The position numbers were made by a program, and so were the translations under genes. From the NCBI GenBank assembly GCA_963817895.1, contig CAWFQB010000010.1:64001-128000 (forward strand): 64,000 bases of DNA. The letters run 5' to 3'. This stretch comes from an uncultured Chthonomonadaceae bacterium (GTDB lineage: Bacteria; Armatimonadota; Chthonomonadetes; Chthonomonadales; Chthonomonadaceae). Positions 1,483 to 14,865 of the stretch are shown one piece after another. The first letter of the stretch is position 1, and the number at the start of each line of letters is the position of its first letter. The notes below the pieces were generated by a model. The model saw only the letters and a program-made list of their open reading frames with translations, was not told the origin of the DNA and did no database searches.

Positions 1483-4203
1483 ATGTTTGTATCCCTATCC
1501 AAAACACGCCTGCTGTTGCTGCCGTGTCTGATTGCCGCTTCCCTCGGCCCTATCGCGGCGCAGGCGCAAAACCCGCTGCCGCAAAACCCGCTGCCGCAAA
1601 CGCCGCAACCCCAAACCCCGCGTCGGACGCCGCGCGCTCCACGAACACCCAATCCTAACCCGATGCCCGACCCACAGGGTCCCGATCCGCAAACTCCCGC
1701 GCCGACCCCGGCCCCCGGCCCACAAACTCCCACGCCCGGACAGCCCGGCGGTGGCGGCGGATTTGGCGGGCGTTTCGGCGGCGGCGCCGGCGGCGGACAG
1801 CAGGCTCGTCCCGCCGCGCCCCGGCCCTACAAGGACGTGATTACCGCCGAGGCGAAGTCCGACCCCGGCCTTTTCACCGTGCATCGCATTGATGACCGCA
1901 TTTTGTTCGAGATTCCTGTAAAGCAGTTAGGCAAAGAGATGCTGCTGTCTACGGAGATTGAAAAAGTCCCGGCGGGAAGCAATGGCTACGGCGGCACGGC
2001 GGCGGGCGACAAAGTGGTTCGGTTTACGCGCCGCAACAACACCGTTTTTCTGCGCACCGTAGACTACTCTTCCCGCGCCGAAGGCAAGGGCGCGATTGCC
2101 CGCGCAGTCGAGGCCGCCAATGTGGAACCCATCGTGATGGCGTTCAATGTCGAGGCCGAAGGTACGGACAAGTCTGCCGTGATTGATGTCACGCGCCTGT
2201 TTACCACCGACCCGGCGGAATTTGCCGTGAAACAGGCGTTGGGCGGCTCCGCCGTAGACCCGACCCGCAGTTTTCTGGAAAAATCCAAATCGTTTCCCAC
2301 CAACATCGAAGTAAAGTCCAACCTGACCTTCATCGGCGGCGGCGGGGCGGGCGCGGGCGCATTGGGCGCTCCGGGCGGACGCGGACGGCGCGGCGGGGGA
2401 GCCAGCAGCCTGACGGCTCTTGTCCACTACAGCCTTGTGCTGCTGCCGGAAAAGCCGATGATGCCGCGCCTGTACGACTCGCGCGTCGGCTACTTCACCG
2501 AACGCTTCGAGGATTATGGCACGCCTGAAAACCGGGTGGCCGAGCGGCAGTATATTGCCCGCTACCGGCTGGAAAAGAAAGACCCCAAAGCCGCCCTTTC
2601 CGAACCCGTGAAGCCGATTGTCTATTACATCAGCCGCGAAGTGCCGGAAGAGTGGCATCCGTACCTGAAAAAAGCCATTGAAGATTGGAACGTCGCTTTC
2701 GAGGCGGCTGGCTTCAAAAACGCCATTGTCTGCAAGGAACCGCCGACTTCCAAAGAAGACCCGGATTGGGACCCGGAAGATGTTCGCTATTCCGTGATCC
2801 GGTGGGCGCCCACGCCGACGGAAAACGCGATGGGGCCGAACATCCACGACCCGCGCACGGGCGAAATTCTGTCTGCGCACATCATTGTGTGGCACAACGT
2901 CCTGAAACTCGGCCAGACATGGTACTTCACGCAGGTCGGCAACATGGATCCGCGCGCGCAGAAACTGCCGCTGCCGCAGGACTTGATGGGCCAGATTTTG
3001 CAGTACGTTGTCAGCCATGAAGTCGGGCATACGCTCGGCCTGCGCCACAACCACAAGGCGAGTTCGTCCTACACCGCCGCGCAGTTGCGCGATAAAACCT
3101 TCACAGACCAGTACGGCGACGAAGCCTCCATTATGGACTACGGGCGCTTTAACTACGTGGCGCAGCCGGGTGACAATGCCCGCCTGATACCCATTATCGG
3201 CCCGTATGACAAGTTCGCCATCGAGTGGGGCTACAAGCCACTGGGCATGAACCGCCCCGACGACGAGAAGCCGGAACTGGACAAACTGGCCTCGCAGCAG
3301 GTCAGCAATCCCATGCTCCGCTTTGGCGGCGAAGACCTCAACGCGCAATCCGACCCGAGCGTGGAAACGGAAGATTTGGGCAGCGATCCTGTGGAAGCCA
3401 CGAGCTACGGCCTGAAAAACATCAATCAGATCGCGCGGATGCTGGTTCCCGCCACCACCAAATACGGCGAGGATTATCAGGACCTGAGTGAGATGTACAC
3501 GCAGTTATTGGCGCAGCGGCAGCGCGAACTCGGCCATGTTGTCAAAGTCGTGGGCGGCGTGGTGCAGACCGACTACCATGCCGGACGCGGCGGCGAAGTG
3601 TACAGCCCGGTTCCCCCGGCAAAGCAGGCGCAGGCCGTGAAGTTTCTGGTGGACAACGCCTTTACCACGCCGCGCAGTCTGCTGCTGACCGATATTCTCA
3701 ACCGCGTTCAAGCGTCGGGCGTACAGGATGAGGTTCTGAACGGGCAGCGCTCAATTCTGACCAGCCTGCTCAGTGACGCGCGCGTGAAGCGGATGCTCGA
3801 CATTCAGGCCACATCAACCGGCACGGCGTACACCGTGGGCAATCTGGTGCGCGATGTGCAAAACGGCATCTGGAGCGAACTGTACAAGCCCGCCCCCGTT
3901 GTGGATTTGTACCGCCGCAACCTGCAGCGCGCGTATCTGGAAACCCTGCGCGGCAAATTGCAGGGCGACAGCGCGACGCCGACCGATCTGCGGCCCGTCG
4001 CGACCGGCAGCCTGATGGACTTGCAGCGCGCCATTGACCGCGCCCTCGTGAAAACCACGGACGCCGATACGCGCCTGCACCTGATGGACAGCCGCGTCAC
4101 GATTGAGCGCATCCTCAAAGCGCCCGTTGTGGTCACGCAACCCGCCCCCGCCGTCGCCGCCTTCCCGTTCGGGCGTGGCGGAATCGAGGACAACGACAAG
4201 TAG
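1483..4203 (+). CDS. Secreted zinc-dependent metalloprotease (metzincin, EcxA/DUF4953-DUF5117 type)
   Basis: Signal peptide, Pro/Gly-rich linker, HEVGHTLGLRHN zinc motif, SIMDY Met-turn; GGAG upstream. Confidence 0.9.
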   Translation: MFVSLSKTRLLLLPCLIAASLGPIAAQAQNPLPQNPLPQTPQPQTPRRTPRAPRTPNPNPMPDPQGPDPQTPAPTPAPGPQTPTPGQPGGGGGFGGRFGGGAGGGQQARPAAPRPYKDVITAEAKSDPGLFTVHRIDDRILFEIPVKQLGKEMLLSTEIEKVPAGSNGYGGTAAGDKVVRFTRRNNTVFLRTVDYSSRAEGKGAIARAVEAANVEPIVMAFNVEAEGTDKSAVIDVTRLFTTDPAEFAVKQALGGSAVDPTRSFLEKSKSFPTNIEVKSNLTFIGGGGAGAGALGAPGGRGRRGGGASSLTALVHYSLVLLPEKPMMPRLYDSRVGYFTERFEDYGTPENRVAERQYIARYRLEKKDPKAALSEPVKPIVYYISREVPEEWHPYLKKAIEDWNVAFEAAGFKNAIVCKEPPTSKEDPDWDPEDVRYSVIRWAPTPTENAMGPNIHDPRTGEILSAHIIVWHNVLKLGQTWYFTQVGNMDPRAQKLPLPQDLMGQILQYVVSHEVGHTLGLRHNHKASSSYTAAQLRDKTFTDQYGDEASIMDYGRFNYVAQPGDNARLIPIIGPYDKFAIEWGYKPLGMNRPDDEKPELDKLASQQVSNPMLRFGGEDLNAQSDPSVETEDLGSDPVEATSYGLKNINQIARMLVPATTKYGEDYQDLSEMYTQLLAQRQRELGHVVKVVGGVVQTDYHAGRGGEVYSPVPPAKQAQAVKFLVDNAFTTPRSLLLTDILNRVQASGVQDEVLNGQRSILTSLLSDARVKRMLDIQATSTGTAYTVGNLVRDVQNGIWSELYKPAPVVDLYRRNLQRAYLETLRGKLQGDSATPTDLRPVATGSLMDLQRAIDRALVKTTDADTRLHLMDSRVTIERILKAPVVVTQPAPAVAAFPFGRGGIEDNDK

Positions 4204-4274
4204 CTTAAACCACCTGCCGTGTCACGCCGCCGCAAGCGCGGCAGGGGAATTGCCTGTACAAATCGCGTCAACTT

Positions 4275-4320
4275 TGCTATAATACAGCCGTATCCTGCTC
4301 GATCAGGATACGGCTGTATT
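4275..4320 (+). promoter_or_regulatory. Extended -10 (TGCTATAAT) overlapped by a perfect 17-bp inverted repeat
   Basis: AATACAGCCGTATCCTG-ctcgat-CAGGATACGGCTGTATT at 4281-4320; TGCTATAAT at 4275-4283. Confidence 0.6.
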
Positions 4321-4344
4321 GCTGGCTCTGGCTGGAGGAAAAAC

Positions 4345-4638
4345 ATGGTTACACTGGATAGGCCCGCCGAAATCGCATTGGACACGCTGAAAGCGGAAGA
4401 CCGCATATTGGCGGAACGCGCGTTTGCCATTATCGAACGTTTTTCCGAAAACGATACGGCGCAGAAAATTCGCAAAGTGTCTATGCCTGATCCCTCCGAA
4501 GATTTTTATATTGTGGAACAGGGCCATCTGAGTTTTCTGTTTGAAGCGCATGGAGAGCGCAAATTGGTAGTAGACATCACGGCTACCGCCCGCCTCCGGT
4601 TTTTTCAAAAATTGCGCGAAGCGGAGACAGCGGCTTGA
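4345..4638 (+). CDS. Small hypothetical protein, possibly RelE/ParE-like fold
   Basis: GGAGG RBS then ATG at 4345; 97 aa with a residue pattern loosely like RelE-family toxins. Confidence 0.5.
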   Translation: MVTLDRPAEIALDTLKAEDRILAERAFAIIERFSENDTAQKIRKVSMPDPSEDFYIVEQGHLSFLFEAHGERKLVVDITATARLRFFQKLREAETAA

Positions 4639-4966
4639 AAACTTTTCGCAGTCACCAATTCAACTATGCCGCGTGTCGGAATGAACTGAATACCTTCAAC
4701 ATGGTTTCAGTCAAGTCGTAGATTGGTTCTACAAACTGGATGATACGCGGCACACAAAACAGTTTGAGGCTATGTTCGGCAGCAACGTTGAATACAGTGG
4801 TTTACTGGTAATCGGGCGCAACAGCGCTCTTAAACCCGGCGAACGGGATCGTTTGCGCTGGCGACAGCAAAATGTGCTTGTGAACTCGCGCAAGGTGGAA
4901 TGTGTCACCTTCGACGATTTGCATAGCGATCTGACAAGAAAGTTGAAACGATACTATCCCGTGTAA
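4635..4966 (+). pseudogene. Internally deleted Shedu/DUF4263-like nuclease remnant
   Basis: TTG overlapping the upstream stop gives (M)KTFRSHQFNYAACRNELNTF; another frame gives HGFSQVVDWFYKLDD...LLVIGR...VTFDDL; the middle is absent. Confidence 0.65.
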
Positions 4967-4977
4967 TTTCTTATCGG

Positions 4978-5070
4978 AACACGAAGGACACGGAGAGGAA
5001 AACAGAGAGTGGAGAGGGAACTGTAGCGTTTCCTTTCTTCTCCTCTGTTCTCTCCGTGTCCTCCTTGGTT
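4978..5070. repeat. Imperfect inverted repeat (ACACGAAGGACACGGAGAG / CTCTCCGTGTCCTCCTTGGT), REP-like
   Basis: Complementary arms between convergent genes. Confidence 0.55.
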
Positions 5071-5145
5071 TTTTGTTCTTCCGGTTTATTCGCAGGGCGC
5101 AGAGCGCAGGAAAACAGGTTTTGCCCACGCTGCATCATGCAAAGT

Positions 5146-5855
5146 TCACGGCACAGGCAGGTATGTGATTTTGGAGAGGTTTTCCAGTTTCGTCCATTTG
5201 ACGTGCGAATCCACATACGCCATTTCAATGCCGCCGTTGTGACGGGCGATGCACAGCCGCCCCATGTTACTGCTGCTGTTCGCGCCGGTCTGCGTGTTGT
5301 ATTGCGAAGGGCAGGAGGTATCGCCATTGTAAATCCAGGCGTCAATCCAGATGGCGTCGGCCAACAGCATGGTCGAGGAGGGTTCCGGTACCTGGCTCAG
5401 ACTGCATACGCATCCCGGGTCTGAACTGCAGTACAGCCAGCCATTGTAGGCGTAACTGCCGTAGTATTTGTAGCCATTCCACGCCTGCGCACTGCTTCCC
5501 TATCCGGCGTAAGGACTGACAGCGTTGGTGCCGGGCCGGGCGTCCGGGCATATATGCACCTGTTTGTTTTTGATGTATGGCTCAAAGGCGACGTTCCAGA
5601 GGTAGCCGCTGTATGCAACGTGATAGTCCAGCAGTTGCTCGTCATAGTCCTGTGAGTACATCGTGGCTCCGTAGGATAGTTGCTTGAGGTTGCTGGCGCA
5701 GCTTGCCTGCCTCGCCTTTTCCCGCGCCTGCGCGAAAACGGGGAACAGAATGGCGGCGAGAATCGCGATGATGGCGATCACCACGAGCAGTTCGATCAAA
5801 GTAAAAGCGTTGCGCGTTGCGCGTTGCGTACTCGGATTTGGGAGATGCGTTTCAT
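5146..5855 (-). CDS. Prepilin-type N-terminal cleavage/methylation (DUF1559-like) protein, interrupted as written
   Basis: [34 protein letters not shown] and C-terminal [23 protein letters not shown] then ATG at 5855 (out of frame across a CGCAACG x3 repeat); in-frame TAG at 5500-5502. Confidence 0.85.
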
Positions 5856-5958
5856 GGGCGAGAACTCCTTTTTCTATTTCTCTCTGCCTCCGGGAAGGTG
5901 AAGCGGAGGCAGAGAGTTTGCGTCCCGTCAGGGGGAGCAAAGCAGCAAACGCGACAAA

Positions 5959-7011
5959 TCAGCGGATGCGGTTTTTGCGACGGCGCAGAAAGCCCGCGCC
6001 CGCTACGCCCATGCCCACAAGCAAGGCGACGCTGCCGGGTTCGGGTACGACGGTGACGAGGAGATTGTGATACATGCCATTAGCGTCGATGTAATAGCCG
6101 ACGAACTGCGTGGCGTTGTTGGTGCGGCCCAGTTCCGTATCAACAGCGCCGGGAACCGCTATCGAGGTATAGCTGCCGTTGCTGGTGTCGTAAATGTAAG
6201 CATTACGATTGTCTGGGGTGTGCGCTTGAGGCTCATAGTTGCCAAAAATCAGCCCGGTGGTGGTGATGCCGTCGGAAGATGTACTGTAGGCGCCGGGAAC
6301 GTTCAGATACGTCGTCATCCCGTTTTGGGTAATGGAGCCCTCGTAGGTATCGTCAGTGAGAGAAGCAAGCGTGACCAGATTTTCGCCATTGGGGCCAATC
6401 GCCTGGAGTTCATTGTTCCGGGGCTGGCCGTTTTGGTCTTTAATGTCCGCGATGGGCGTGAACGTGTCGGTCGCGATGTTGTAGCTGGCAATGCGGTTAT
6501 CACCAATGTAGCCATATTGAACGGCGACGATACCGGCCTCATTGACATTCTCGAGGTTTGTGTAGCCGAAACTCAGGCCCGTCATCGGGTCTGTAACCTT
6601 TGGGGCGGTGAAAGCGGCGGGGTTGCTGGTGCCGAGGTTGCTGTTGTAGATGAAATCCGTGGTGTAGTTGAAGCTGGAGTCAAGGGTCTGACCAGTCACA
6701 TACCCGGCGTTGTTGATGCCGTTATAGTACAGGATTTGCGTGTTGGCAGCACCGGGATAGTCAATGGGGAGGGTAAAGGTGCCGTCGGGACTGCGAATGT
6801 AGCCGTGATTGACGCCGCTGGGGTCCACATAGGTTCCGGTGATGCTGCCCGACGCGCTGATGCCCGATGCGCCCGAACCAATTGGCCCCTGTCCAGGCAC
6901 ATCAAACGTGTCCAGGCGGAAGGACAACTGCGCATTGGCGGGACGGGCGGCAAACAGGGCCAGAGTGGACAGGGCGATCAGGCCGGCTTGCAGGAAAAGA
7001 GTGCGAGGCAT
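5959..7011 (-). CDS. PEP-CTERM sorting-domain surface protein with repeated beta-strand units
   Basis: Signal peptide; repeated (V/Y)PGA..T...GI units; C-terminal VPEPGSVALLVGMGVAGAGFLRRRK. Confidence 0.9.
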   Translation of the reverse strand: MPRTLFLQAGLIALSTLALFAARPANAQLSFRLDTFDVPGQGPIGSGASGISASGSITGTYVDPSGVNHGYIRSPDGTFTLPIDYPGAANTQILYYNGINNAGYVTGQTLDSSFNYTTDFIYNSNLGTSNPAAFTAPKVTDPMTGLSFGYTNLENVNEAGIVAVQYGYIGDNRIASYNIATDTFTPIADIKDQNGQPRNNELQAIGPNGENLVTLASLTDDTYEGSITQNGMTTYLNVPGAYSTSSDGITTTGLIFGNYEPQAHTPDNRNAYIYDTSNGSYTSIAVPGAVDTELGRTNNATQFVGYYIDANGMYHNLLVTVVPEPGSVALLVGMGVAGAGFLRRRKNRIR

Positions 7012-7097
7012 AGAGTTCTCCTTTTTGTGATAACAGACGTAAAACTAAACGCTGGGTGTATTTGTGGAAGCGACGATGGTTCATTTCCGACACTCTC

Positions 7098-7173
7098 AGA
7101 ATAACGTTATTTTCGTGACCGCTCCGTGACCGTTACAGGCATTTTCGTGACGCTTTTTCCCGGTATCGTTACG
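7098..7173 (-). promoter_or_regulatory. SARP-type activator-dependent promoter of the PEP-CTERM/prepilin operon
   Basis: On the minus strand CGTAACG, CGTCACG, GGTCACG, GGTCACG at 21/21/11-bp spacing, then 10 nt, then TATTCT (7103-7098). Confidence 0.6.
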
Positions 7174-7270
7174 GAGGAATTTTGCGCGGAAACGGCGAAC
7201 TGTTTGCCATCTTTGAAAAGCGCTTTGCTTTTGTTATTGCTTTCTTGAACCGGCAGGAAATCAGCCTTTT

Positions 7271-9239
7271 ATGTCCTCCCCACTCGCCATTCATCTGTTT
7301 GAAACATTCCGCGCCGAGCGCGGCCCTATCGCCCTGTCCGGCCTGCATCTGCGGGAGGGTGAGCGGCTGCTGGCCTATTTCGCGTTGCGGAACAGCGAAC
7401 CGGTGGCGGCGCGGGAACTGGCAAAGCATTTCTGGCCCACCGAAGCCGAAGTCAGCCCGGGGAGCGAGGGCAATTTCCCCAGCGTCCGTCAGGCGTTGAG
7501 CGCGCTGCGACAGGCGCTCGGCGCGGACGCGCGCAGGATCACTCGCCCCACGCGGGCAACCGTGCGGTTCGACGTTACAGGCATTGAATGTGATGTTCTG
7601 GCGTTCGACGCGCTGACGCAGGTTGGGGCAGGGGAGAGTTCCGGGAGTGGGGAGAAGGAGGCCGCGCGCATTGCCTGTGAAGCCTGGACGGAGGCGGCAG
7701 CATTGTATCGCGGCCCGCTGCTGGCGGCGTGGGACGATGCCTGGGTGAAAGAAGCGCGAACCCGCCGTCAGCGTACCTATGAGCGAACATTGCGCCGCCT
7801 GATTGAATATGCGCGGCTTCAGGGCGAATGGGGGGAAGTGGAACGCTGGACGCGCCGCCTGGTGGCCGCGGGCCCACCGATGAGGAAGCAAGGCGCGACC
7901 TGCTCCGCCTGTTAAGCGCGTCGGGACGACATGCCGAGGCGGGGGAGATGCTGGACAGTCTGGCGGACGCGGCAAAGGCGGCAGGGCAGGCGCTGCAGCC
8001 GGAAACGCTCGCGCTGGCCGGGGAACTAAGGCAGGCGCGCGAGCGCGTTCCTCTGTCCGCAGGAGCGATTACGCCGCCTGTGGCTGTGACCGGATTGGCA
8101 GCCGCTCCGCCGCAGAACAAAACATCGGCAACAATCGCGCGTACCGCTAATCAGGAGAACAGCGTTCCTCCTCCTCCGGTCAACAGCGATGCCACACAGG
8201 AGTTTGCCGCCCTGCCCATAGAACCGGCGGGGGGCGCGGTTCCCGTGCAGTTGCCCTACTATATTGAGCGCGAGGGAGATGCGGAGTTTCACGCCGCGCT
8301 TGCGCGGAGCGACAGCATCCTCGTGATTTGGGGGGCGCGGCAGGTGGGCAAAACCAGCCTGATGGCGCGGGGACTGCACAGGGCGCGGCAGGCCGGGATG
8401 CGCGTGGTCGTAACGGATTTCCAGAAAATCAATGCGGAGCAGCTTGTCTCGGCTAATACGCTGTATCTCGCCCTCGCCGAGTCGCTTGCGATACAGCTCG
8501 ATCTCGACGTTCTGCCCGGCGAGGACTGGAATCTGGCGTTCGGGCCGAACATGAATTTGGAACGGTATCTGCGGCGGCGCGCGCTGCGCGCTTTTCCCGA
8601 ACCCCTCGTCTGGTGTCTGGATGAGGTAGACCGGCTGTTTACCTGTTCGTTCGGCCAGGAAGTGTTCGGCCTGTTTCGCTCCTGGCACAACGAACGCGCT
8701 CTGGACCCTGCGTGTCCCTGGTCGCGGCGTTTCGCTGGCCCTCGCCTGCGCGACGGAAGTGAGCCTGTTCATTACCGACATCAACCTGTCGCCTTTCAAC
8801 GTTGGGACGCGGCTGATCCTGGAAGATTTCACGCTCGCGCAGGTGGAGGAACTGAACCGGCGCTATGGCGGAGTTCTGTCGGAAGAAGAGTGCGCGCGTT
8901 TTCACGTCCTGACGGGCGGCCACCCGTACCTGACGCGGCGGGGATTGGATGCCGCGCGGCGGGGGCTGTTCCTGGAACGCATGGAGCGGGAGGGACACCA
9001 CGCTGACGGTCCCTTTGGGGAGCATCTGCGCCGCCTGTCCTCCTTCCCTGTCGCCGGAACTGCTGGAAGTAGTGCGCGAAATGCTTGCCGGACGCCCCTG
9101 CTCCGACCCGAAAGCGTTCTATCGCCTGCGCACGGGCGGCATACTGACCGGCGCGTCGTGTGGGGAAGCTCGGTGGCGCTGCCGCCTGTACGCCGCGTTT
9201 CTGAGCAGCCAGTTTGCCCCTTTCCCGCCCATCGCGTAA
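7271..9239 (+). CDS. SARP-family transcriptional activator (winged helix + BTAD) fused to an AAA_35-like ATPase; about 3 frameshifts
   Basis: LLAYFALR...FWP...LRQALG, DVLAFD...AALYRGPLL (BTAD); GGAVP...YYIER, Walker [10 protein letters not shown], Walker B LDEVD, SPFNVG, TGGHPYL; joined across ORFs 7271/7828/8759/8949. Confidence 0.85.
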
Positions 9240-9289
9240 CGATTGGCGCCCATTTCGTCACGCAGTCGTCACGAAAGACAGCGTATACT
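9235..9289 (+). promoter_or_regulatory. SARP-type activator-dependent promoter of the AAA_35-WD40 gene
   Basis: CGTAACG(9235), CGTCACG(9256), CGTCACG(9267), then 10 nt, then TATACT(9284-9289). Confidence 0.6.
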
Positions 9290-9330
9290 ATCCTGAAAAT
9301 GCGGGTGTTGGGACAGCAGGACAACCAGAT

Positions 9331-12300
9331 ATGACGACGCAGGCAAACAATTTCTATATCACGGGGGAACTCTGCCCCTGGACTCCGGCTCGTATGTGAC
9401 GCGGCAGGCGGACACGGAACTGCTGGAAGGACTGAAGCGCGGCGAGTTCTGCTATGTGCTGAACACGCGGCAGATGGGCAAGTCGTCGCTCATGGTGCGA
9501 ACGGCGCGCGACCTGCGAAAGATGGGCTGCCGCATCATTATCCTGGACCTGACGGCCATCGGCCAGAATTTGACTATCGAATAGTGGTACTCCGGGCTGG
9601 TGGGACGCATCGCGCAGCAAACCGACCGGGAGGACGAACTGCTCGACTTCTGGGAAGCGCATGCAACTCTGGGGCCGATGCAGCGATTTGTCGAAACCCT
9701 GCGCCGCGTTCTGTTGACGCGCAAGCCGTCCGGCGAGACAGGCAACGCGGCGGGAGTGGCGGAGGACGGCAGGCTTGTTTTGTTCATAGACGAGATTGAC
9801 GCGGTGCGCAGCCTGCCGTTTTCCACCGACGAGTTTTTCGCCGGCATCCGCGAGTGTTACAATCACAAGGCGACCGAGTTTGCGTTCAACAATCTTACCT
9901 TCTGTCTGCTGGGCATGGCGACGCCGAGCGATCTGATCCGCGATACCCGCGTCACTCCCTTCAACATCGGACAGCGTATCGAACTGCGCGACTTTACCCG
10001 CGAAGAAGCCCTGCCGCGAGCGGCAGGGCTGAAAATACAGCGCAGTGAACCGGAAGCGGAACTGCTGCTCGAGCGCGTTCTTTACTGGACGGGCGGGTAT
10101 CCCTACATGACGCAGCGCCTTTGCCGCGCCGTTGCCGACAGCCTGACCGCGCAGAGTGAAAGTCCGAATGTTTCGAGTTGGAGCGGCAAGCGGGACGGGA
10201 TCGAAGACGCCGCTCTGGTGGACAGCCTGTGTCAGCGTTTGTTTTTAACCCGAACGGCGCAGGAGACGGATGACAACCTGGCGTTCCGCGCGCGCGCCTG
10301 CTGCACAGCGAGGAAGACCGCGCGGCCCTGCTGGATTTGTACGGGCAGGTGCGGCGTGGTAAGCGGGTACGGGATGATGAAACGAACCCCCTGTGTCCCA
10401 TACTGCGGCTGTCGGGCGTGGTGAAGGCGTCGGGCGGCGCGCTGCTCCTGCGCAACGCGATTTACGCGCGCGTGTTCGATGCCGCCTGGATTGCCGAGTA
10501 CATGCCGGATGCCGAAGTGAGGCGGCAGAAACGCGCGTTTCGGCGGGGCGTTTTGCGAACCGCAGCCGTGTTCGGCAGCCTGACCCTTGTGATTGGCGCG
10601 TTGCTGTTCGTCGCCGTTGTGAACGCGAAGCGCGCCCACGTTGCCGAAGCCGACGCGCAGAAGCAGGCGGCGTATGCCCGCGAACAGGCGGATTATGCCC
10701 GCGAGCAAGCGCAGGCCGCTTCCCAATTGCTCTACGACGCGAACATGAACCAGGTACAGCATGATTGGGAACTGGGAAATTTAACAGTCGCGAACGGCCT
10801 GCTGCAAGAGACGAAAGACAGCCCGGCGTGCGGTTTCGAGTGGGAGTATTGGAACCGCCTGCAAAACGAGTACGCCGCGCCCCTCCCCACGACAAACTTG
10901 TTCTGGGCATTGATCGCGCCGGACAATCGCACACTGGGGGTAATCACGCGGGAGGAACAATCCCCGGAAAAAGGCCGCTTTACCGCGCGGGATTTGTTCA
11001 CCGGAATTGCGCGGTTTTCCACTCCGGCGCGTTGTCTTGTATCGCCGTCCCTGGCGTATTCGCCGGACGGCAGCCGCCTGCTGCTGTGCGTCGGCAAAAC
11101 CGTGGAAGTGAGGGACGCGCAGAACGGACGGCTGCTGCAAATGGTTCCCGCGCGACAGGAGGACGTTCTCACCTTCCAGTTCACGAGGGACGGCGCGGCG
11201 ATTCTGGTGGCGCGAACCGGGGGATTGCTGACGCTTTGGGATTGTCACACGGAAAGAACGCTATGGGAACGCAAAATACCTGTAACAGATAGGGTCTGCA
11301 TTGTCACGAGTGATAAGAGCGCGGCTACAATTATAGCAACAGGCGAATATACAGGCGTGATGCAGATTTGGGATATTGCAGCCGGCGACGAATTGTACCG
11401 TAATGACCGGAATTTCAATTGCGGGCCGCTTGCCTTTTCGCCCGATGGCCGCTTTCTTGTGGGAAGGCAAGCGGAGATGGGATTGAAATCCTTGAACTGT
11501 CAACGCGCGCGCTGCGAAATCTCTTCGACCCTCCCGGCCCCGCCTATTCCTACCACTTTTCCCGGATAAACGTCGGCTGACAGTGGGCTATGCGGGGCGC
11601 ATTTGTACCTATGATATGTCGTCAGGCCGCCTTCTGAGCGACCCTCCCAAGTCCAGTACCGGCTGTGACGAGGTATGTATTTCCCCGAATGGCCGCTTCG
11701 CGCTTCGCGCCGAGAGAGATGACAAATTTCACTTTGTCCGAACCACGCCCCGCGCCGCTTCCCTGCGCCTGATTCCGCCTTCCGCGCCGCAAGTCCTGCC
11801 TGATGGCAAATCGCGTCGCGCTCCGCTGTGGAGAAGTCGTTACTCGCCCGACGGCCGGCGGCTGGCGACCCCCTGTGGGGATGGCAACGTGTATCTATGG
11901 GACACCGGCACGGGGAAATTGCTTCAAACGCTGCGAGGCGACGGGGTACGGGCGAATGTCGCCGCGTTTTCCCACGATGGCAGCCGCCTTGCCGTAGGCG
12001 ACGATGCGGGCCGGATCAGCCTGTGGGATTTGCAAGCCGGGAAGCGCCTGATTCAATTTCGCGCCCACATCAGGCTGAACACCCATATACCGGACCAAAC
12101 AGGACTGGTCAACGATATACGCTTCACTTTGGATGATCGGCAGTTACTCACAGCCGGCGACGACTTCACCGCGAAAATATGGGACTTGGCGGCGGGAAGC
12201 GGAACCGCGCCACGCCTGCATATCGCGCTGCAAGGGCATACCTATGCCGTGGAGTGTTTCCTACTTGCTCCTGACGGCGCCACTCTGCTGACGGGCAGTG

Positions 12301-12716
12301 ATGATGGAACGGCAAAACTGTGGGAGCGCCGTACCGGGCGTCTGCTGGCTACCTTCAAGTCGTCGGCGGAAATCTGGAGCGCGGCGTTTTCGCCGGATGG
12401 CAGGCAGATTGCCCTTGCCACGCTGTATAAAACCGCTGAAGTATGGGACATCGGCACACATCGGAAACTTCACACCCTCAGCGGGCATCTGGATTGGGTG
12501 ACGGATGTGGCCTACTCGCCGGACGGCAAGCGCATCATAACGAGCAGCAGAGACAAAACGGTGAAACTGTGGGACGCGCAAACGGGCCGGGAACTGCTCA
12601 CGCTGCGCGGGCATACCAAACAGGTTATCAGCGTCGCCTTTTCTCCGAACGGGCGTCAAATCGCCACATCCGGTTCCGATGGAATCGCGCGTCTGTGGAA
12701 TACCGATACCAACTAA
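9331..12716 (+). CDS. AAA_35-like ATPase - single TM helix - WD40 beta-propeller protein; several frameshifts and one in-frame TAG
   Basis: [12 protein letters not shown]...SYVTRQAD, Walker A RQMGKSS, Walker [42 protein letters not shown]; many GH...FSPDG...W(D) WD40 repeats. Confidence 0.85.
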
Positions 12717-12821
12717 TACAGGCTGCTTGAAGTTGGACGCGCACGTCATCTGGCGCGCTGTGTCCCGTTCATGGCTAAAGACAGGAAAAATCAGGTTCTT
12801 CCCCGTGTTCCCTGTGGTCTA

Positions 12822-13817
12822 TCATTCCCCTGGTTGCGCGAAGTGGCAGGCGGCGAACTGTCCATCACCCATTGCGCGTAGCGCGGGAACTTCCTGTGCG
12901 CAAATCTCCTGCGCGAGGGGACAGCGGGTTCGGAAACGGCAGCCGGAAGGCACATCAACGGGGGAAGGCACGTCGCCTTCCAGTAGCGGTCGGTCGTGGC
13001 GCAACGCGGGATCGGCAATGGGCGCGGATGCAAGCAGCAGTTGCGTATACGGGTGTTTGGGCAGGGAAAAGACGCGCTCGCTCGGCCCCTCTTCCACAAT
13101 CACGCCAAGATACATTACGCACACGCGGTCACAGAAATGCCGCACGATAGACAGGTCATGCGCGATAAACAGGTACGCCAATCCGCGCTCCGCCTGAATG
13201 TCGGACAGCAAATTCAGTATCTGCGCCCGAATCGAGACATCGAGGGCGGAAATCGGCTCGTCCAGTATCAGCAGTTTGGGATTGGTGGCGAGGGCGCGGG
13301 CAATCCCGATGCGCTGCCGCTGTCCGCCCGAAAATTCATGCCCGTAGCGCGTGGCGAATTCGGGACGCAGCCCGACATTTTGCAGCAGTTCGCGGGCGCG
13401 TTCCAATCCCTCCTGCCGCGAAGTCACCAGTTTGTGGGCGCGTAACGGCTCGGCTACAATGTCGCCGATCATCATGCGCGGGTCCAGAGCGGCATACGGG
13501 TCCTGAAAGACGATGTTCATGCGCTGCCGCATCCGGCGCAAACCTTCGCCCTGCAACGCCAGCACGTTTTCGCCCTCCAGGTGTACCTGCCCGCCTGTCG
13601 GCTGCAACAGCCGCAGAATGGCCCGTCCCGCCGTGCTTTTGCCACAGCCGCTTTCCCCCACCAGTCCAACCGTCTCTTTCGCGCCAACGGTCAGATCAAT
13701 GCCATCCACTGCCCGCACGGTTTTTATCGCCATGCGCCAGCCCTGCCGCTGATGTATATGAAAGTGCTTGACCAATCCCTGTACCGTCAGCAGCGTTCCC
13801 GCTTCAGCATGTCTCAC
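12822..13817 (-). CDS. Oligopeptide/dipeptide ABC transporter ATP-binding protein (OppF/DppF-like)
   Basis: GESGCGKST, FSGGQRQR, ILDEP, HPYT and C-terminal Cys cluster. Confidence 0.92.
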   Translation of the reverse strand: MRHAEAGTLLTVQGLVKHFHIHQRQGWRMAIKTVRAVDGIDLTVGAKETVGLVGESGCGKSTAGRAILRLLQPTGGQVHLEGENVLALQGEGLRRMRQRMNIVFQDPYAALDPRMMIGDIVAEPLRAHKLVTSRQEGLERARELLQNVGLRPEFATRYGHEFSGGQRQRIGIARALATNPKLLILDEPISALDVSIRAQILNLLSDIQAERGLAYLFIAHDLSIVRHFCDRVCVMYLGVIVEEGPSERVFSLPKHPYTQLLLASAPIADPALRHDRPLLEGDVPSPVDVPSGCRFRTRCPLAQEICAQEVPALRAMGDGQFAACHFAQPGE

Positions 13818-13893
13818 GTTTCTGCTCCTCGATTCAAAAACTTGTCGTTTGGCCTCTCACCTGAAACCTTAAAACCATAGAACCCTGAAAACT

Positions 13894-14865
13894 TTACCCG
13901 CCGTACAAATAACAGCGTGTGGTTTGCCCCGGTTCGGGTTCGGTGTATTCGGGTTCTCGCGTGGGACAAATAGCCATACGATGCGGGCAACGGGGCGTGA
14001 AGGGGCAGCCGGGGGGAAGATGCGCGAGATCGGGCGGCTGTCCGGCGATTGTGGACAGGCGGCGCGAACCGGCCTGCTGGAACTGCGGCAGGCTGGCAAG
14101 CAGTCCCTGCGTATACGGGTGTTTGGGCGCGCGGAATATCTGCTCCACGCTGCCGCTTTCCACCAGCATACCCGCGTACATCACCAAAACGCGATCACAC
14201 ACTTCGGCCACAACCCCTAAATCGTGCGTAATCAGCACAATGCCCGTATCGGTCTGCTTTTGCATCCCGGCCATCAGCGCCAGCACCTGCGCCTGAACGG
14301 TCACGTCCAGCGCGGTTGTCGGCTCGTCGGCTATAAGAAGTTCGGGGTTGCAGGCAAAGGCCATCGCGATCATCACGCGCTGCCGCTGCCCGCCCGAAAT
14401 TTCGTGCGGGTACTGCCGCAAACGCAGTTCCGGGTTGGGAATACGCATATCGCGGAATAGCTGCAACACGCGGTCACGCGCTTCACTCCTGCTTGCGCCC
14501 CGATGCAGACGGATAGGTTCCGCAACCTGCGTCCCCAGTGTCATAGTCGGGTTCAGGCACGAAAACGGGTCCTGAAACACCATTGCCATGCGCGAACCGC
14601 GCAATTTCTGCATCTCCCGCGCCGATTTGTCGACAAGTTCCACGCCATCTAATTTGACTGAGCCACCCGTGATTTTGCCCGGCGGTGAGGGGATCAGCCC
14701 CATAATGGACAGCGACGTAACGCTTTTGCCCGATCCCGACTCGCCCACAATGCCAACGGTTTCGCCCCGCGCCACCTGAAACGTCACGCCGCGAACGGCC
14801 TGCACCTTCCCCCCGGGCGTTTGAAACTCCGTGCGTAGATTTTCCACTTCCAGTAACGCGCTCAT
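13894..14865 (-). CDS. Oligopeptide/dipeptide ABC transporter ATP-binding protein (OppD/DppD-like)
   Basis: GESGSGKSVT, ISGGQRQR, ADEPTTALD, HPYT. Confidence 0.92.
   Translation of the reverse strand: MSALLEVENLRTEFQTPGGKVQAVRGVTFQVARGETVGIVGESGSGKSVTSLSIMGLIPSPPGKITGGSVKLDGVELVDKSAREMQKLRGSRMAMVFQDPFSCLNPTMTLGTQVAEPIRLHRGASRSEARDRVLQLFRDMRIPNPELRLRQYPHEISGGQRQRVMIAMAFACNPELLIADEPTTALDVTVQAQVLALMAGMQKQTDTGIVLITHDLGVVAEVCDRVLVMYAGMLVESGSVEQIFRAPKHPYTQGLLASLPQFQQAGSRRLSTIAGQPPDLAHLPPGCPFTPRCPHRMAICPTREPEYTEPEPGQTTRCYLYGG

Follow-up and report, generated by a model that had tools for sequence, protein, structure and literature searches.

This work concerns a pair of genes in a 64,000-nucleotide stretch of DNA (the window) from an uncultured Chthonomonadaceae bacterium of the phylum Armatimonadota (assembly GCA_963817895.1, contig CAWFQB010000010.1, positions 64,001 to 128,000 of the forward strand). 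At positions 7271-12716 of the window, two adjacent genes read in the same direction, here called F and S, encode nucleoside triphosphatase (NTPase) modules of one class, AAA_35, and divide the remaining parts of a signaling protein between them: F carries an output head and no sensor, and S carries a sensor and no output head. The F-S pair is a real and widespread module and not a chance arrangement. How it works we infer: with about as much confidence as doubt, we propose a STAND-type mechanism in which S senses an extracytoplasmic cue and switches on F through contact between the NTPase modules, and F then activates genes that lie behind a shared promoter box, the S gene included. An earlier note on the window had pointed out the two genes and the divergently transcribed surface-protein genes beside them, which we confirm, and had built on them a signaling scheme that our analysis supports in part.

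Two proteins built around one NTPase module

F (7271-9239, plus strand, with a TAA stop codon at 9237-9239) comprises a SARP head, made up of a winged helix-turn-helix (wHTH) and a BTAD domain, a disordered linker, and an AAA_35 NTPase, as seen with Pfam, with tblastn, and in a model of its orthologue. In Pfam searches of the F pieces, BTAD scored 24.6 bits (E 3.6e-5) against a cut-off of 22.1, AAA_35 (PF14516; gathering cut-off, 27 bits) scored 106 and 69 bits (E 2.3e-30 and 4.1e-19), and the winged helix (Trans_reg_C, OmpR type) scored only 17.1 bits in the window piece, under its own cut-off. S (9331-12716, plus strand) opens with an AAA_35 NTPase (31.6 and 44.6 bits; E 9.6e-8 and 1.1e-11). 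A juxtamembrane stretch of basic character follows, then a single membrane helix (about 10565-10621 by hydropathy, with no other hydrophobic segment lying between NTPase and WD40 region), a helical linker, and WD40 propellers (about 10900-12713; E 6.6e-57). The four motifs by which the earlier note had recognized the same class of P-loop ATPase in both genes are present in the translations, as RQVGKTS, DEVD, PFNVG, and TGGHPY in F and as RQMGKSS, DEID, PFNIG, and TGGYPY in S, and the two fusions it described, of F to a winged-helix/BTAD activator and of S through a single membrane helix to a WD40 region, are borne out by Pfam and hydropathy.

A model of an intact F orthologue (pLDDT, 89) places the SARP domain at residues 1-266, the disordered linker at 267-307, and the NTPase module at 308-641. 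In Foldseek searches, the head (residues 1-266) matched AfsR as it stands in transcription initiation complexes (8k60_I and 8hvr_I; TM-score, 0.65-0.69), as well as EmbR; a winged helix followed by a BTAD domain that scores above its cut-off, together with this structural match, is the make-up of a SARP. Residues 1-470 of an S orthologue were modeled with a pLDDT of 89 and a pTM of 0.79. The NTPase modules of both proteins had the same best matches, the archaeal ATPases PAB2304 (2qen) and SSO1545 (2fna), followed by ORC/Cdc6, Avs3/4, CED-4, and plant resistosomes for F and by ORC/Cdc6, CED-4, Avs, and plant NLRs for S; Apaf-1 and MalT were also among the matches. Both models consist of an alpha/beta domain, a helical domain, and a winged-helix hairpin, which is the composition of a NOD (nucleotide-binding oligomerization domain), and the Walker A (GKT/GKS) and Walker B (DExD) motifs are invariant or nearly so in the NTPase alignments. 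The modeled fold would not by itself separate a STAND protein from an ORC/Cdc6-like AAA+ protein, and the head, NOD, and sensor that a STAND protein joins in one polypeptide are here distributed over two, with head and NOD in F and NOD, membrane helix, and sensor in S. In the S model, the winged-helix part (residues 352-388) continues directly as one helix (391-469) that spans the membrane segment together with the basic juxtamembrane stretch and an extension on the outside, and through this continuity a movement of the ectodomain could bias the nucleotide switch.

The WD40 propeller of S likely lies outside, as the earlier note had supposed. A hydrophobic segment is found at residues 375-450 in 44 of 45 S proteins, in 43 of them as the sole one. 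The 15 residues on its N side contain on average 5.3 K+R and 0.6 D+E, those on its C side contain 3.4 K+R and 1.6 D+E, and the N-side flank is the more basic of the two in 36 of the 44. This basic N-side flank, together with an N-terminal module that is ATP dependent and the absence of a signal peptide, points to an outside location for the C-terminal part. The ectodomain position is occupied mostly by WD40 among the S proteins and in other members by TPR or by PEGA/CarboxypepD_reg and CBM_4_9 domains, of which PEGA, CarboxypepD_reg, and CBM_4_9 are typically extracytoplasmic.

The pair across genomes

The source genome contains 25 AAA_35 matches, and these are of two kinds. F-type matches span the whole model, follow a variable head, and finish at the C terminus, whereas those of the S type extend over positions 4 to about 246 of the model, begin at the N terminus, and are followed by a membrane helix and mostly WD40, in proteins of 770-1330 amino acids (aa). 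Intact paralogues of the F type score 233-256 bits and those of the S type 82-99 bits. The paralogous pair loci of this genome have BTAD heads (L001 and L002), a TIR head (L007), a cyclase-plus-TIR head with two S genes (L006), or weak or unrecognized heads (L003, L004, and L005). Among the 150 AAA_35 matches listed for 31 genomes of the order, 65 were high scoring, and a low-scoring match lay on the same strand within 400 nt downstream of 40 of these 65 and within 10 kb of 55.

To this we added a wide scan of one genome per species, in which there were at least 438 relatives and the best 79 loci were analyzed, scored with two hidden Markov models built for the purpose. These loci come from Armatimonadota, Acidobacteriota, Verrucomicrobiota, Heliomicrobium, and the metagenome-assembled genomes of an actinomycete and a gammaproteobacterium. 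S lay directly downstream of F in 53 of the 79 and elsewhere in the locus in 6; in 3 there was a second F only, in 10 the contig ended within 1.5 kb of F, and in 7 S was absent within about 7 kb. S is thus kept in 59 of the 69 loci with enough contig around F, and in at least five phyla. The two genes overlap by 4 nt in ten pairs. Conservation of the genes as neighbors, by which the earlier note would have its scheme judged, is therefore seen within the same genome, within the order, and in several phyla. A wide protein search gave the same F heads, and its nearest relatives, from Chthonomonadales and Capsulimonas, place the organism in Armatimonadota. Finally, the F and S NTPase modules co-diverge: in a Mantel test, which correlates two distance matrices and gauges the result by permutation, r was 0.81 over 50 pairs, a value reached by none of 2,000 permutations, and for seven paralogous pairs within the genus r was 0.83, reached by 3 of 5,040 permutations.

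What changes from locus to locus is the head of F and the ectodomain of S. Heads were sought in 71 F proteins, which came from 69 of the 79 loci; the loci left out were 6 in which the contig start cut F and 4 others. The head was TIR in 21, a Ser/Thr kinase plus TIR in 17, a Ser/Thr kinase in 13, BTAD in 7, an OmpR-type winged helix alone in 6, and a cyclase plus TIR in 1; none was recognized in the remaining 6. In all 71, the AAA_35 match finished within a few residues of the C terminus, and the S relatives open with AAA_35 and carry no head, so that F and S are complementary in every member scanned. The earlier note had described the system as free of kinases. By Pfam, there is indeed no histidine kinase (HisKA/HATPase_c) or receiver domain in the pieces of the locus or in nine neighbors scanned, which include a secreted Met-zincin, oligopeptide ABC ATPases, and a NusG paralogue; because 30 of the 71 relatives carry a Ser/Thr kinase head, the description is true of this locus and not of the system. 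In 12 loci, mostly of Acidobacteriota, a gene for an extracytoplasmic function (ECF) sigma factor adjoins a kinase-head F gene (for example, L027:4276-4875; PF07638, E 1.3e-53), which suggests that the kinase-head versions feed an ECF sigma factor. In a search for a third partner, this sigma factor alone was recurrent, along with common outer-membrane barrel proteins.

Promoter boxes and the genes that they face

The 259-nt spacer between F and the divergently transcribed genes contains phased CGTGAC repeats, which on the opposite strand have a layout, GTCACG-N5-GTCACG-N9/10-TAnnnT, that recurs in the spacer between F and S. The first box promoter (7098-7151, minus strand), 86 nt upstream of the start of a PEP-CTERM gene, consists of GTCACG at 7151-7146, 15 nt, GTCACG at 7130-7125, N5, GTCACG at 7119-7114, N10, and the putative -10 element TATTCT at 7103-7098. 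The second (9257-9289, plus strand), 42 nt upstream of the S start codon, consists of GTCACG at 9257-9262, N5, GTCACG at 9268-9273, N10, and a putative -10 element TATACT at 9284-9289. This layout fits the rule for SARP target promoters given in the available text of PMC10936776, in which direct repeats at a spacing of 11 or 22 bp take the place of a -35 element and the 3' one of them stands about 8 bp away from the -10 element. No canonical sigma-70 promoter was found at 5000-13000 of the window.

With at most one mismatch, the layout occurs 6 times in the 7.48-Mb genome, versus 0 or 1 time for each of 10 control hexamers, and phased GTCACG triplets occur twice, versus none for 15 controls. 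Besides the two sites of the window, which face the PEP-CTERM gene (-10 at 7098-7103) and the S gene (-10 at 9284-9289), two sites on contig C5 face a prepilin-type gene and a gene for a secreted 338-aa protein beside another AAA_35 pair, one on C1, with one mismatch, faces a prepilin-type gene, and a perfect GTCACG-N5-GTCACG-N9-TATACT at C4:748790-748821 (minus strand) faces a 267-aa gene. The product of this last gene begins MAKSVHLVVIDPQVDF; a BTAD gene at C4:749379, which lies outside the AAA_35 pairs, is transcribed divergently from it. Both boxes of the window are conserved at the orthologous places of a congener (G001, same genus, 3 contigs, 97% complete; orthologous locus L018), at 11732 on the plus strand and 9628 on the minus strand, with different internal spacers. 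Three GTAACG boxes with this layout belong to the paralogous SARP-type pair L005: one precedes its own S gene, and another precedes the gene for a secreted 706-aa protein. These predicted boxes support a scheme in which F would drive the surface-protein genes and S.

The first gene downstream of the first box (5959-7011, minus strand) encodes an intact 350-aa PEP-CTERM protein with a signal peptide. It scored 20.4 bits in Pfam, slightly under the cut-off of 20.7, and 22.7 bits against a cut-off of 16 with NCBIfam TIGR02595, and its translation contains VPEPGSVALLVGMGVAGAGFLRRRKNR, that is, a C-terminal PEP motif, a membrane helix, and a basic tail; with three matches to exosortase EpsH genes in the genome, it has the features of an exosortase substrate. 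The second gene of the divergent unit, 19 nt past the first, is a prepilin-type (N-methyl) DUF1559 gene (5146-5940, minus strand) whose real start is probably nearer 5820-5850. Its Pfam matches are N_methyl (32.8 bits, E 4.4e-8), DUF1559 (E 2.4e-6), and SBP_bac_10 (28.3 bits), and its orthologue in the congener matches TIGR02532. The divergent PEP-CTERM and prepilin-type genes are thus as the earlier note had them. As a separate observation, the stretch that encodes the N-terminal part of the prepilin (5640-5830) has dozens of matches in each of two congeners, G001 and G002, at 75-92% DNA identity.

On the far side of this unit, a 93-aa open reading frame (4685-4966, plus strand) matches the C-terminal half only of the Shedu defense nuclease SduA (PF14082, E 2.9e-13), and the open reading frame before it (4219-4638) has no Pfam match; the region 4204-4966 (plus strand) may be a truncated or frameshifted Shedu gene.

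A proposed mechanism, its alternatives, and known systems

In the mechanism that we propose, the propellers of S would sense a cue outside the cell, and the long helix would relay the change to the winged-helix part of the S NTPase module. The NTPase modules of S and F would then come together, much as sensor and helper NLRs do, and this would free the SARP heads of F or bring them side by side. The heads would bind the boxes and activate both the PEP-CTERM/prepilin unit and the S gene, the latter amounting to positive feedback. More tentatively, F and S could be a bacterial counterpart of sensor and helper NLRs, divided across the membrane, in which a ligand-bound membrane NOD nucleates assembly of a soluble NOD that bears a SARP, wHTH, Ser/Thr kinase, TIR, or cyclase head. 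Such a pair would be a third general transmembrane route, alongside two-component and sigma/anti-sigma systems, and the fast-evolving propeller and the PEP-CTERM protein under its presumed control, which evolves equally fast, may form a loop for surface recognition of self or kin.

Several observations weigh against the proposed mechanism. The co-divergence of the F and S modules reflects inheritance and divergence as a unit and does not speak of contact between the proteins. On the C side of the S helix, too, the flank is fairly basic. One S paralogue, a 1183-aa AAA_35-WD40 protein (L004:6693-10244; G000:C1:516692-520243), is without the usual hydrophobic segment and may be a soluble version of the sensor. 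Heads of the kinase and/or TIR kind, which 52 of the 71 F proteins carry, are likewise a signature of conflict systems. As to the boxes, this SARP is only one candidate to bind them, since GTCACG boxes are present also at the paralogous locus L003 (C5) and beside the other BTAD gene on C4, and one hexamer is shared by at least two paralogous loci. Exact boxes are rare elsewhere, numbering 4 in the 938 kb of other genomes' loci, in 2 of 14 loci with DNA-binding heads and 2 of 65 others, and a relaxed search in other genera gave no enrichment (2 in 27 kb of noncoding DNA of loci with DNA-binding heads versus 5 in 105 kb); in L019, no clear gene lies downstream of a GTCACG box that follows the S gene. 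The very large size of the DUF1559 prepilin-type family here raises the chance that any intergenic site will adjoin one of its genes. The idea of the earlier note that the system switches on surface proteins and its own sensor is supported by the conserved boxes that face the PEP-CTERM/prepilin unit and S, but it does not extend to the BTAD-AAA_35 paralogues L001 and L002, which have neither such boxes nor surface-protein neighbors; their divergent neighbors encode an ankyrin protein, an RsgA GTPase, and a GNAT acetyltransferase.

All of the evidence for coupling applies equally to a scheme of the opposite sign: by the NTPase contact, S would keep F inactive at the membrane until the cue freed it, in an anti-sigma-like manner. 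A SARP that has to reach promoters is more easily pictured free than tethered, but membrane-bound transcription activators such as ToxR and CadC exist, so that tethering is no bar to activation by contact with S. Under the opposite sign, the box promoter before S would mean negative feedback, which is itself possible. The behavior of AfsR, whose SARP head is kept inhibited by the NTPase module and the TPR for as long as ATP is not bound, as described in the available text of PMC10936776, also favors a restraining role. On balance we consider the opposite sign rather unlikely.

A second alternative takes its strength from the heads and from the uneven divergence of the locus. Between the window and the congener, the S NTPase module is 80% identical, the S juxtamembrane part 67%, the prepilin protein 80% (across an in-frame TAG codon), and F 64-88%, and flanking genes and cytoplasmic modules in general are about 80% identical; in contrast, the S ectodomain (10700-12716) is at most 34% identical, and the PEP-CTERM protein is 34% identical to its positional orthologue, with the signal peptide and sorting tail conserved. 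The S ectodomain of the window has no paralogue in its genome above 39% identity. Speculatively, fast evolution of what the sensor and its presumed target expose outside would be in keeping with a role in recognition. The family could then be a biological-conflict system, for immunity or kin recognition, in which S would detect a surface cue that is foreign or nonkin and the effector would be delivered by F; the SARP version would be a derivative for remodeling of the surface. In favor of this are the TIR, kinase-plus-TIR, kinase, and cyclase-plus-TIR heads counted above, the folds that the modules have in common with Avs and NLRs, and the Shedu fragment that adjoins the locus. AAA_35 is presumably the Npun2340/2341 family. 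In the available text of PMC8195603, that family is listed among conflict-system NTPases. Yet PADLOC models gave no real match to either NTPase module, the ECF sigma factor gene beside F in 12 kinase-head loci points to ordinary transcriptional signaling, and known antiphage STANDs sense phage proteins in the cytoplasm and not cues from outside. We therefore regard a conflict system as unlikely.

A third alternative, that the locus is a decaying pair of pseudogenes that does not work in this strain, arises from the breaks in its reading frames; if these were real, this copy would be dead, a further point against the proposed mechanism. Six frameshifts and two in-frame TAG codons fall within 7.5 kb, with intact genes on either side (1483-4203 and 12822-14865), and the earlier note was right that indels interrupt F and S, three frameshifts being found in each. 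Placed by tblastn with intact same-genus orthologues and by DNA alignment, the frame changes of F lie near 7871, 8728, and 9044; in S, one base is missing from the G5 run at 9363-9367, and the frame shifts near 10287 and at 11496-11569. The in-frame TAG codons lie at 9582-9584 in S, where the congener has Q, and at 5500-5502 in the prepilin gene, where it has L.

The same locus is intact throughout in the congener, with an F of 696 aa by its longest open reading frame (644 aa as database protein P0001), an S of 1353 aa, a 225-aa prepilin gene, and two PEP-CTERM genes, the second at L018:12905-14149. By tblastn, residues beyond every break in the window are still 64-88% identical to those of the congener, and the breaks are located in short runs or repeats (G5, TTT, and a GC repeat), both of which argue against decay. 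Compared with the window, contigs of a related organism (sequencing run X1) are one base short at 8729 and again at 9042 and carry an extra one behind 9365. From run X2, a 151-nt contig equals the window over 8708-8859 except for a one-base gap, again contrary to decay, and another of 151 nt differs from the window over 9555-9705 by one letter. Elsewhere in the genome, rpoB is intact and the essential rpoC is split (G000:C3:352734-357250), with model positions 1-139 in a 238-aa frame and the remainder in a separate frame of 1320 aa, which points to indels introduced by assembly. The completeness score of the genome, just 81% in 14 contigs (7.48 Mb), also favors such errors. Because the same-genus genome is intact and rpoC is split too, most of the breaks, though less surely the two TAG codons, are likely assembly errors, and a pseudogene pair is improbable. 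Recoding of the stop codon was rejected for the TAG codons: the congener has Q at one and L at the second, and TGA is found in other AAA_35 genes that are broken. Neither a single recoding nor a simple indel accounts for both.

That F and S are uncoupled, merely co-transcribed paralogues each with a ligand of its own, is very unlikely: it would suit the 7 of 79 loci with no S within 7 kb of F and the 3 with two F genes only, but F lacks a sensor and S an output throughout, both genes are kept in 59 of the 69 loci that have room for them, the modules co-diverge even among the paralogues of one genus, and ten pairs share the 4-nt overlap.

The division of labor that we propose for F and S has a counterpart in NAIP-NLRC4 and in plant sensor/helper NLRs, cytosolic eukaryotic pairs of paralogous NOD proteins in which one carries the sensor repeats and the other the output head, and the coupling proposed is likewise from NOD to NOD. 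The differences are that the NOD of S is anchored in the membrane and has a predicted outside propeller, that the head of F is a transcription activator, and that hetero-oligomerization is only a proposal for F and S. Planctomycetes have receptors in which a Ser/Thr kinase or an ECF sigma factor is joined by a membrane segment to WD40 in a single chain. They share with S a cytoplasmic module, one helix, and a periplasmic WD40 region, but their output is in the same chain, and they have no NTPase switch. Two-component systems and ECF sigma/anti-sigma pairs also turn an outside cue into transcription of genes close by, and their sensor is often autoregulated; by Pfam, the locus has no histidine kinase, receiver, sigma, or anti-sigma domain, and a nucleotide-switch assembly is proposed for it in place of phosphotransfer or proteolysis. 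The antiphage STANDs (Avs and bNACHT) share the NOD fold, with Avs3 and Avs4 among the Foldseek matches, and TIR heads are common in the F-S family; the antiphage STANDs are single cytosolic sensors of phage proteins, and PADLOC models match neither F nor S. Neither PADLOC nor NCBIfam has a family for F or S.

The SARP head of F is that of AfsR-type large SARPs (SARP-NOD-TPR) and of EmbR, fused in F to a STAND NTPase module, and the promoters of the locus resemble theirs, with direct repeats that have an 11-nt spacing, stop about 8-10 nt short of the -10 element, and stand in for a -35 element (PMC10936776, available text). F differs in that its NTPase is of the AAA_35 type, nearest to SSO1545 and PAB2304, with no NB-ARC reported by Pfam, in that it has no TPR or other sensor, the sensor being on a separate membrane protein with an NTPase of its own, and in that its host is a member of the Armatimonadota and not an actinomycete. 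The modeled match of both modules to SSO1545 would fit the MNS clade of STAND NTPases, in which the Npun2340/2341 family carries TIR, kinase, and other heads (PMC8195603, available text); no F/S gene pair or membrane-spanning member is described for PF14516 or this family in the available texts of the literature searched. AAA_35 is mentioned in the available text of PMC11119718 as an accessory domain of cyanobacterial sigma factors. The earlier note knew of no characterized system with this layout, and we likewise found no F/S pair described in the literature searched, which included PMC13581612 in its available text, its supplementary tables, which may classify the clade, lying outside the search. 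SARP heads on STAND NTPases, as in AfsR, and STAND families with TIR and kinase heads are thus already known; apparently new, within that literature, are head-bearing and sensor-bearing NTPases encoded side by side, a membrane-spanning sensor NTPase, and the predicted box promoters.

If F and S are coupled through their NTPase modules as we propose, at least five phyla carry an unstudied route by which signals from outside would cross the membrane, one in which an NLR-like nucleotide switch would replace phosphotransfer or regulated proteolysis and in which the outputs would be plug-in heads for transcription, phosphorylation, or NAD/nucleotide chemistry. The division between sensor and helper known from the NLRs of animals and plants would then extend to bacteria. 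The SARP version described here, with its predicted DNA boxes and target genes now named, offers the easiest experimental entry to the family.

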